Shown here: piece by piece, positions 35,906-36,307 of the stretch
Layout of the letters: every line of letters begins with the position of its first letter
Position numbering within the stretch: position 1 is the first letter of the stretch
Origin: Escherichia phage JohannBuxtorf_Bas84
Length of the DNA: 44,189 nt
Sequence record: PQ850611.1
Direction: 5' to 3' (one strand)
Notes under the pieces: model-generated
Seen by the model: only the letters and a program-made list of their open reading frames with translations
Told to the model about the DNA's origin: nothing
The model's database searches: none
Position numbers and translations under genes: made by a program

Positions 35906-36138
35906 GGTATATCTCCGATTGGTTAAGTTTAGGTGTCGGCAGTTAACTTCGTCGGTGGCCTTAACATATTGCCCGGTTACGCGTTCTCCCGTTAGGGTAG
36001 TGGACCGGGTTATATAATCACGGTTGGGAATCCTGACACTTCGATCCGGCCCCTGCGTTGCCCCTCTCCAGTTTGCGTCCTGCATCCTGTCGACGGAGTG
36101 AATAATAGATTGGTTGCAGGATGGGTGTCAACAACTAA

Positions 36139-36177
36139 TTTAAAAAAAAAAGCGCCGAGGCAAAATGCACCGGCGCT
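36139..36177 (-). terminator. strong minus-strand intrinsic terminator in divergent control region
   Basis: perfect 7-bp stem agcgccg/cggcgct (36151-36157/36171-36177) followed on the minus strand by U10 (plus-strand A10 at 36142-36151); no U tract on plus strand. Confidence 0.75.
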
Positions 36178-36206
36178 AACCAATAGGAGACAATGAGACG
36201 GGAATT

Positions 36207-36235
36207 ATTATTACACGCGTGCGCGCCCGTTTCAA
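36207..36235 (-). promoter_or_regulatory. putative sigma70-like promoter reading leftwards
   Basis: minus-strand TTGAAA (plus 36230-36235), 17-bp spacer, AATAAT (plus 36207-36212); about 55-60 nt upstream of the minus-strand terminator. Confidence 0.35.
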
Positions 36236-36247
36236 TATCCAAAGGAT

Positions 36248-36276
36248 TTGACACCGTGCAGTTTTGGGTGTAGTTT
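36248..36276 (+). promoter_or_regulatory. putative sigma70-like promoter for plus-strand replication block
   Basis: TTGACA (36248-36253), 17-bp spacer, TAGTTT (36271-36276); about 30 nt upstream of ATG 36308 with RBS AGGAGA. Confidence 0.5.
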
Positions 36277-36307
36277 CGTTGGTCATTAACCAACAGGAGA
36301 CTGAATT

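Follow-up and report, generated by a model that had tools for sequence, protein, structure and literature searches.

A conserved structured RNA in a probable early control region of the Dhillonvirus coliphage JohannBuxtorf_Bas84

The window analyzed here is the whole stretch of 44,189 nucleotides (nt) in record PQ850611.1, from Escherichia phage JohannBuxtorf_Bas84, and our subject is its divergent intergenic region at positions 35906-36307. This region separates a leftward gene for an acidic 167-amino-acid (aa) protein (ATG 35905, preceded by GGAGA at 35916-35912) from a rightward gene for a 109-aa helix-turn-helix (HTH) protein (ATG 36308), which is followed by a gene for a 754-aa helicase-primase. 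With a 1.3-kilobase query around the locus, 175 phage records matched (identity, 80-99%), and almost all belong to Dhillonvirus, among them the HK578-like coliphages Maverick, BF9, slur05, and Oekolampad/Bas18; the window is thus the genome of a Dhillonvirus (HK578-like) coliphage. Both gene starts stand where an initial annotation of the sequence had put them, and GGAGA followed after 7 nt by ATG 35905 forms a strong site that, from the sequence, marks the true start of the acidic protein. Between the genes lie three predicted promoters (P_R, P_L1, and P_L2), an intrinsic terminator, a folded RNA, and several candidate regulator sites (Table 1). Conservation was assessed in 14 related loci, or 15 genomes once the window is counted. 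The noncoding stretch 36132-36306 is 85-97% identical to that of the relatives; for the neighboring HTH gene, identity is 78-83% in 11 of those 14 loci.

The principal finding is a conserved, structured RNA of 160 nt on the minus strand, referred to here as the leader RNA, whose beginning coincides with the predicted start of transcription from P_L2 (+1 to +3). As an alignment block of approximately 155 nt, it is present in 11 of the 15 genomes (10 of the 14 relatives) and cleanly missing from 4. Where present in these Dhillonvirus loci it is 95-99% identical, with few, compensatory changes (for example, CCNGG versus CCN'GG), and remnants of its 5' strand in genomes without it point to at least two independent losses. 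Envy and WF5505 are natural phages that lack it. BLAST searches placed the leader RNA in approximately 171 phage records from at least four taxa. The carriers include members of the Drexlerviridae (in the Tempevirinae, Warwickvirus JK16, swan01, tunus, and Motto; also KMI8), Jilinvirus (Arya), Sortsnevirus (IME279), Lumpael, Bas97, and others, and two of them, Oekolampad (Bas18) and HeidiAbel (Bas97), bear BASEL collection numbers. Between unrelated phages that share no other DNA similarity, the leader RNA is still about 80% identical. It was not found in 5,426 complete Escherichia coli genomes or 72,556 plasmids. Scans of metagenomes and genome collections with an exact 17-mer, whose matches were filtered on two further conserved blocks of the leader RNA, gave 105 matches, 15 of them real and the rest, as expected, mostly due to chance; sequence scans added metagenomic copies. 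When the second conserved block served as the search pattern, no new lineage besides Lumpael was recovered.

Covariation among the carriers defines the fold. RNAalifold run on MAFFT-only alignments already returned covarying pairs, such as A-U versus G-C in helix P3 and three pairs in P6. Since MAFFT had misplaced a few single-nt gaps, 29 sequences representing seven lineages were aligned by hand on anchored blocks, with N written for gaps. There, a structure of 46 pairs in eight helices has standard pairs in 95.4% of cells, versus 29-43% after shifting the 3' partners by 1-3 columns, and in 24 of the 46 pairs both partners change; because the alignment was made to fit the structure, these pairing figures are inflated. 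The covariation score was 0.444, compared with 0.137 in shuffled alignments, and none of 500 shuffles reached it. At one position in P5 up to five pair types occur. Only the minus strand folds in this way, because several G-U pairs fit that strand alone. Lumpael, which was held outside the alignment, fits the structure with a new compensatory version of P5 (CAUAAC/GUUAUG). P1, P2, and the outer part of P3 each allow competing registers. A single-sequence fold of the 211 nt at 35890-36100 gave no signal (z = +0.84), and the minimum-free-energy folds of individual lineages disagree, so that comparative analysis alone resolves the structure. The initial annotation had described TATATAAT at 36011-36018 as a box in a leader. 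The position is correct, and the string forms the 5' strand of helix P5a rather than a conserved promoter, with GGCCGAA in its place in other lineages.

The setting of the leader RNA recurs across lineages. In five annotated carriers it sits in the sense orientation within an intergenic gap of 200-270 nt, and in every lineage it starts 6-8 nt past a -10-like hexamer (TATAGT, TATTAT, CATAAT, or TATATT); the promoter in front of it usually has a good -35 and sometimes a terminator just upstream. The next ribosome-binding site follows 12-45 nt beyond the RNA, the downstream genes are unrelated between lineages, and no conserved protein neighbor was shared across the lineage neighborhoods. Searches of Rfam 15 with four representatives returned no match, the best scores being far below threshold and their overlap with the 160-nt RNA no greater than chance, and a literature search with the literal strings GGATTCCCAACCG and ATTGGTTGCA found nothing relevant. 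The core sequence did not appear in the searchable literature, and the RNA may be one of the 10,006 candidates in a catalogue of viral RNAs (PMC10690425). We conclude that the leader RNA represents a new and well-supported family of structured RNAs, predicted to open the early transcripts of several virulent enterobacterial phage groups. Judged by its sequence distribution, it is an optional cassette that appears to have spread horizontally.

Table 1. Features of the control region and related sites elsewhere in the window; promoters, terminators, and operators are predictions.
Feature	Position	Strand	Remarks
Leader RNA, conserved and structured, 160 nt	35935..36094	-	Comparative fold, seven lineages
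Helix P1	leader RNA	-	Closing helix, 5' end to 3' end
Helix P2	leader RNA	-	Hairpin, loop AGGAU/C
Helix P3	leader RNA	-	GGRGC with GCY(A)YC, beside conserved purine-rich internal loop; leads to three-way junction
Helix P4	leader RNA	-	Hairpin, nearly invariant, at three-way junction
Helices P5a-P5-P6	leader RNA	-	Covarying arm at three-way junction
P_R, TTGACA-17-TAGTTT, putatively for 109-aa HTH protein and primase-helicase	36248..36276	+	-35 36248-36253, -10 36271-36276
P_L1, TTGAAA-17-AATAAT with upstream TG (extended -10)	36207..36235	-	10/12, among the genome's top three
P_L2, TTGACA-18-TATTAT, putative main leftward early promoter	36102..36131	-	11/12; directly 3' of terminator
Intrinsic terminator	36142..36177	-	7-8-bp stem, inner 3-bp extension, then U10; fold -15.5 to -17.4 kcal/mol
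T10 plus AAATTAGTTG tract, candidate UP element	36132..36151	-	~-36 to -55 of P_L2
Predicted 55-60-nt RNA, candidate small RNA	36142..36200	-	~25-nt unpaired 5' part (GUCUCAUUGUCUCCUAUUGGUUA), terminator hairpin, U10
ATTGGTTGCA box (TGCAACCAAT on minus strand)	36109..36118	+	In P_L2 spacer, ends 1 nt before -10; invariant in all relatives
Other box copies	5791-5814, 21810-21819, 24834-24855, 26498-26524, 39386-39426, 40126-40135, 42550-42559		Exact
One-mismatch box copies	38978, 39013, 39295, 29408		
Palindrome TTGGT-cATTA-ACCAA, candidate operator	36279..36293	.	Just past P_R -10, ~+3 to +17
ATTGGTT half-site in short-RNA region	36178-36184	-	
ATTGGTT half-site at acidic-gene ribosome-binding site	35918-35924		
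AACCAAU half-box, GGAGA Shine-Dalgarno, and ATG of acidic 167-aa protein	35903..35924	-	Read in sequence
Second intrinsic terminator, 3' of acidic-protein gene, within leftward operon	35366..35393	-	Kept in all relatives, leader RNA present or not

The initial annotation had described the region as a divergent control region with back-to-back promoters, and the two that it named, P_R and P_L1, are both present, with -35 hexamers 12 base pairs (bp) apart. This arrangement is conserved in the relatives; the description omitted the strongest promoter, P_L2. Both hexamers of P_R are invariant in the 15 genomes, and its spacer varies at 3 positions; the -35 matches consensus at 6/6 positions, and the promoter is absent from the promoter-scan list because its -10 matches at only 3/6. 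P_L1 is invariant in the relatives, spacer included, except for a 2-nt spacer deletion in one of them (L005). P_L2 is the best sigma-70 match of the whole genome and is kept as TTGAC(A/T)-17/18-TA(T/A)(T/C)AT in 15 of 15 genomes. All three have hexamer spacings of 16-18, and the HK578 RefSeq record annotates three predicted promoters here that correspond to them. Of the genome's three best promoter matches, two fall on the same strand of this intergenic region, separated by 104 bp, and at 11/12 there is one match in the genome versus 0.33 expected under a first-order Markov model. Literature searches on Dhillonvirus promoters and transcriptomes and on cappable-seq of Drexlerviridae returned nothing relevant and no Dhillonvirus transcript data. 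The control region itself is ordinary and is already partly annotated by prediction in databases.

The terminator between P_L1 and P_L2 is a hairpin with arms AGCGCCGG..CCUCGGCGCU followed by U10, as the initial annotation had reported. A simple hairpin scan did not list it, owing to a loop of more than 8 nt; it is annotated in the CS16 and WF5505 records. Two compensatory double changes distinguish the L005 stem (AUCCCCG...CGGGGAU) from that of the window (AGCGCCG...CGGCGCU), and the T run is 8-13 long across the 14 related loci. The element should act in one direction only, because the plus-strand sequence beyond the hairpin is AACCAAT. We infer that the hairpin and U10 form an efficient intrinsic terminator.

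The T tract of this terminator, together with the adjoining AAATTAGTTG, which is invariant in the relatives, lies where UP elements would sit relative to P_L2, and general knowledge of UP elements makes it a candidate for one. In this it is like coupled terminator-promoter arrangements, with T10 plus AAATTAG at about -36 to -55 of P_L2 and a layout that is repeated at 42491-42550 and upstream of the leader RNA in other phages; it differs from them in that stimulation of P_L2 by the tract is here only predicted. According to its abstract, a 2026 bioRxiv preprint describes promoter-terminator coupling as widespread in bacteria. In other lineages, too, an intrinsic terminator precedes the promoter of the leader RNA (about 100 nt upstream in loci L030, L060, and L080, and at 1405-1480 of locus L018 in Arya); in one example, GGGGCTTCGGCCCCTTTTTT is followed by 14 nt and then TTGACA. 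The order of terminator, promoter, and RNA recurs though the terminators are unrelated in sequence. The second unit of this kind in the window, at 42491-42550, consists of GCCCGG..CCGGGC plus T5 and, 5 nt on, TTGACT-18-CATACT, with a -10 that abuts both a TGCAACCAAT box and the next gene's ribosome-binding site.

Transcription from P_L1 to the terminator would yield a short RNA starting near 36200. Its 5' part is invariant in the relatives save for one C/T position and a 1-nt deletion in L005. The RNA has no match to an Rfam family and occurs only in Dhillonvirus-type genomes (154 records). In silico, its 5' part can pair with each flanking gene's ribosome-binding site (-21.6 and -20.7 kcal/mol); at the HTH gene, the Shine-Dalgarno stretch of that site varies among the relatives, whereas the short RNA does not. 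The layout of Hfq-type small RNAs, with their own promoter, a conserved seed, and a poly-U terminator, is found here. The likeness to Hfq-dependent small RNAs extends to a terminator hairpin with a long U tail and a conserved 5' part, single-stranded over about 25 nt, that includes the anti-Shine-Dalgarno sequence CUCC; the differences are that the short RNA has neither an Rfam match nor a significant phage target. Phage lambda offers two further comparisons, the oop RNA, which is antisense to cII, and the 6S RNA from PR'-tR', a substrate of Q antitermination. As in these, a discrete RNA of less than 80 nt ending at a strong intrinsic terminator is predicted within a control region. Unlike them, the RNA from P_L1 is antisense to no gene, a separate promoter comes after the terminator, and no Q-like system was identified. 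P_L1 plus terminator is most simply read as the source of a small RNA, which we regard as plausible from the sequence, if without a convincing phage target.

The candidate regulator sites center on one motif. The initial annotation had assigned ATTGGTTGCA at 36109-36118 to a leader; the position is right, and the box falls instead in the P_L2 spacer, as one of 12 exact copies in the genome. With at most one mismatch there are 17 copies versus 3.1 expected, and the core ATTGGTT occurs 19 times versus 3.9 expected. The exact copies are all intergenic and often in tandem, 12-31 bp apart, and at several of them a -10-like hexamer (TATAAT, AATAAT, or TATAGT) ends on the first T of TGCAACCAAT. This abutment suggests a phage-specific class of promoter or operator. 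Only three TTGGT-N3-6-ACCAA palindromes occur in the genome, the one beside P_R among them; the other two, at 5784 and 39417, lie before other genes, have the form TTGGT-N5-ACCAA, and are placed just upstream of ribosome-binding sites. In the relatives the palindrome at 36279-36293 is essentially invariant, with one T/C change in L006. The control region therefore holds four related sites, counting the P_L2-spacer box, the P_R palindrome, and the two half-sites. The 109-aa protein has a C-terminal helix-turn-helix that scores above the Pfam thresholds for HTH_23 and Sigma70_r4_2, and among the loci compared both this protein and the box are restricted to Dhillonvirus. As the obvious candidate, the HTH protein may bind the box, a reasonable guess. 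A short box repeated at many promoters with a small HTH protein next door recalls CI/Cro operators and the T4 MotA box; the difference from the MotA box is that the present one lies at about -22 to -12 or across the start rather than at -30.

Taken together, these observations make it probable that the region is a divergent Dhillonvirus early control region with three promoters, a terminator-insulated P_L2, a leader RNA, and regulator boxes. In the model that we propose, P_R would drive the small HTH protein and the primase-helicase. P_L1 would make only the 55-60-nt RNA, because the hairpin and U10 constitute a presumably efficient terminator. That terminator would insulate the much stronger P_L2 behind it, with its T10/AT tract placed as an UP element for P_L2, and P_L2, not read-through, would drive the leftward early operon. 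Transcripts from P_L2 would start with the 160-nt folded RNA, acting in cis on the transcript or on the polymerase. The box, the palindrome, and the two ATTGGTT half-sites would be binding sites of a phage regulator that tunes both early promoters after infection.

Several observations weigh against parts of this model, in addition to the inflated pairing figures given above. Genome-wide promoter matches at 10/12 or better number 3, versus 4.3 expected under the same Markov model; the count of promoter-like sites alone is not above Markov or shuffle chance, and support for the promoters comes from their co-location, orientation, and conservation. The transcription starts of all the promoters are predictions from sequence. 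Among 100 ribosome-binding sites scored as targets of the short RNA, those of the two flanking genes come only 6th and 9th, and a genome-wide duplex scan within the phage, in which host targets were not searched, found nothing beyond self-antisense. The HTH protein is linked to the box only by adjacency and shared genus restriction. Finally, the leader RNA is evidently dispensable, having been lost at least twice with the internal terminator at 35393-35374 retained, which argues against an obligatory antitermination role.

The initial annotation had offered two outcomes for P_L1, a discrete RNA of about 60 nt or an antitermination-controlled leader. The former is plausible at the predicted 55-60 nt; the latter founders on P_L2, which lies between the terminator and the genes. 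As a regulated barrier in the manner of lambda PR'-tR', the hairpin would let polymerase from P_L1 through with the help of a phage factor, and the following 235 nt would be the leader. A promoter followed by a strong terminator within about 50 nt does reproduce the PR'-tR' layout, and a further terminator lies inside the operon, but we consider this reading very improbable. Because a conserved, near-consensus P_L2 (11/12, kept in all relatives) stands between the terminator and the genes, the leftward genes need no read-through. The leader RNA begins at the P_L2 start and just after a promoter in six other lineages as well, so the stretch of about 235 nt ascribed to P_L1 would instead be the 5' part of the P_L2 transcript, most of it the 160-nt structured RNA. 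No Q-like factor or binding element was identified, no dedicated search having been made, and five neighboring proteins were scanned without such a domain being found. A serious rival to the small-RNA reading, though on balance an unlikely one, is that no functional RNA comes from P_L1 and that the hairpin with its T tract has no role beyond insulating P_L2 and supplying its UP element; the invariant flanking sequence would then represent protein-binding sites (the ATTGGTT half-site and the GC-rich spacer) and not an RNA seed. Consistent with this, the terminator-then-promoter layout also occurs at 42491-42550 and in other phages, where the terminator ends ordinary genes, the supposed seed includes the ATTGGTT half-box and no target was found for it, and even the P_L1 spacer is invariant, which is more than ordinary promoters need. 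On the other hand, P_L1 matches at 10/12 with an extended -10 and is among the genome's three best matches, the terminator has nothing else to terminate in the absence of an upstream gene, and the build is that of a standard small RNA, with a single-stranded 5' part, a hairpin, and at least 8 U residues. We give little credence to the P_L1 transcript, or the whole region, being a replication primer or origin with the ATTGGTT sites as iterons. The primase-helicase gene does adjoin the region, which has short repeated sites and an A/T tract, but the box is spread genome-wide at gene starts and promoters, no direct-repeat cluster is present here, and the phage encodes its own primase.

For the leader RNA itself, the most likely role is action in cis on the early transcript or its polymerase, either in elongation past internal terminators or in stability of the 5' end. 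Such action is suggested because the RNA lies at the very 5' end of early transcripts, is independent of the downstream gene, and has no terminator of its own. Because helix P1 is modeled to start 2-3 nt in from the 5' terminus, it would protect the mRNA as well. Further intrinsic terminators are located at about 35373 and about 32343 in the leftward operon. Phage HK022 provides a close parallel in its putL and putR RNAs, which act in cis and independently of protein as antitermination RNAs, bind the zinc-binding domain of the RNA polymerase beta' subunit, and suppress downstream terminators. Like put, the leader RNA is folded and encoded immediately past an early phage promoter, does not depend on the gene that follows, and has intrinsic terminators further down its operon; it also has an early -10-like NANNAT (CAGGAT), as reported for putL. 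In HK022, the start of putL falls near +3 of the PL transcript (PMC9378689). The differences are that put is approximately 70 nt with two stem-loops, whereas the leader RNA has 160 nt, six or seven helices, and a three-way junction, and that the internal terminator is kept in genomes without the leader RNA; with the terminator at 35393-35374 retained in those genomes, a put-like test of presence and absence failed. The leader RNA is not a member of the put family, as its position fits and its size and architecture do not; sequences were not compared. Strings resembling boxA of Nus-dependent antitermination (CTTAACCAA, CTTTAACCAG, TTTTAACTAA, and ATTAACAG) were also seen just after the closing helix in several lineages. 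One such string, CTTTAAC(A/C)A, noticed by eye, lies at about 35934-35918 on the minus strand of the window and also in IME279, KMI8, and Arya, with other lineages lacking it.

Action in cis on elongation or stability is ranked ahead of a processed RNA acting in trans, and we hold both with low confidence. The 160-nt RNA might be cut from the 5' end of the early transcript and act as a decoy or sponge for a host factor or an anti-phage defense. Its optional, patchy occurrence and horizontal spread among unrelated virulent phages would suit an accessory trans-acting RNA equally well, it has no partner protein and was not found in E. coli genomes or plasmids, and it exposes several GGA motifs, including that of the CAGGAUG hairpin loop, which, by eye, resembles CsrA sites. 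Against this stand the seven lineages, in none of which (0/7) a terminator or obvious processing site occurs at the 3' end, with a ribosome-binding site following within 12-45 nt; the sequence between the GGA motifs is moreover invariant, unlike that of known sponges. Release to act in trans seems unlikely to us. An N-terminal extension of the acidic protein, encoded by 36085-35906 as annotated in the 714-nt coding sequence of Oekolampad/Bas18 and in several other records, has practically no probability. The in-frame ATG 36085 does give an open frame of 227 aa, it is annotated so in Bas18, and "hypothetical protein" is called under several matches. However, +2 or -1 indels break the frame in 4 of 17 relatives, every substitution changes an amino acid and the substitutions form compensatory RNA pairs, other lineages have no ATG there, and the strong GGAGA-7-ATG site lies at 35905. 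On account of these frame breaks and the lack of synonymous changes, the coding extension across the leader RNA was rejected.

Protein calls over noncoding RNA were also noted in database records, namely, bas18_0048 and bas18_0049 of Oekolampad/Bas18 (2003-2716 and 2807-2917 of locus L002) and gp46 of SO-1. One such call is an N-terminal extension across the 160-nt leader RNA and another a 36-aa open reading frame across the P_L1 and short-RNA region; in the aligned sequences, frame-breaking indels among relatives contradict both. Small open reading frames on both strands of 36135-36293 were likewise rejected, as 1-nt indels in relatives break their frames.

Repeated DNA was observed elsewhere in the window. 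The acidic-protein gene (35402-35905) and a minus-strand gene at about 32381-32781 share repeats (32397-32608 and 35646-35789) that encode alternating acidic (D/E) and lysine/alanine-rich stretches; both proteins look disordered, with acidic and basic stretches, and the acidic protein has no Pfam domain. A second repeat of approximately 200 bp is present in two copies 27.6 kilobases apart (11379-11620 and 39040-39235), with many GCGGGACA units. A 57-nt stretch that is 100% identical between the copies contains a long G/C-rich inverted repeat (AGACGGGGGTCAATGGCCCCCCTCGTCT). One copy lies before an 880-aa gene at 11684 and the other after the helicase-primase gene, and the repeat is possibly a regulatory or replication site.

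The main value of this analysis is that what had been a "leader" is now recognized as a conserved folded RNA with no match in Rfam or in the literature searched. A recurring annotation error, by which an N-terminal extension or a "hypothetical protein" is called over this RNA, is thereby corrected. As a tentative and broader interpretation, which we regard as possible but doubtful, the 160-nt RNA may represent a new class of mobile "promoter-plus-RNA" modules in virulent enterobacterial siphophages that reprogram host polymerase, in the manner of put with an unrelated fold, or neutralize a host factor or defense, in either case without a dedicated protein; the 57-nt RNA would then be a genuine small RNA. 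The region also provides a testable map of a control region, with three promoters, a terminator that may double as upstream promoter DNA, and a repeated regulatory box. The carriers of the leader RNA, Dhillonviruses, Warwickvirus, Jilinvirus, and Sortsnevirus, are common, easily grown coliphages whose early gene control is unstudied, and natural variants with and without the RNA make its function directly testable.

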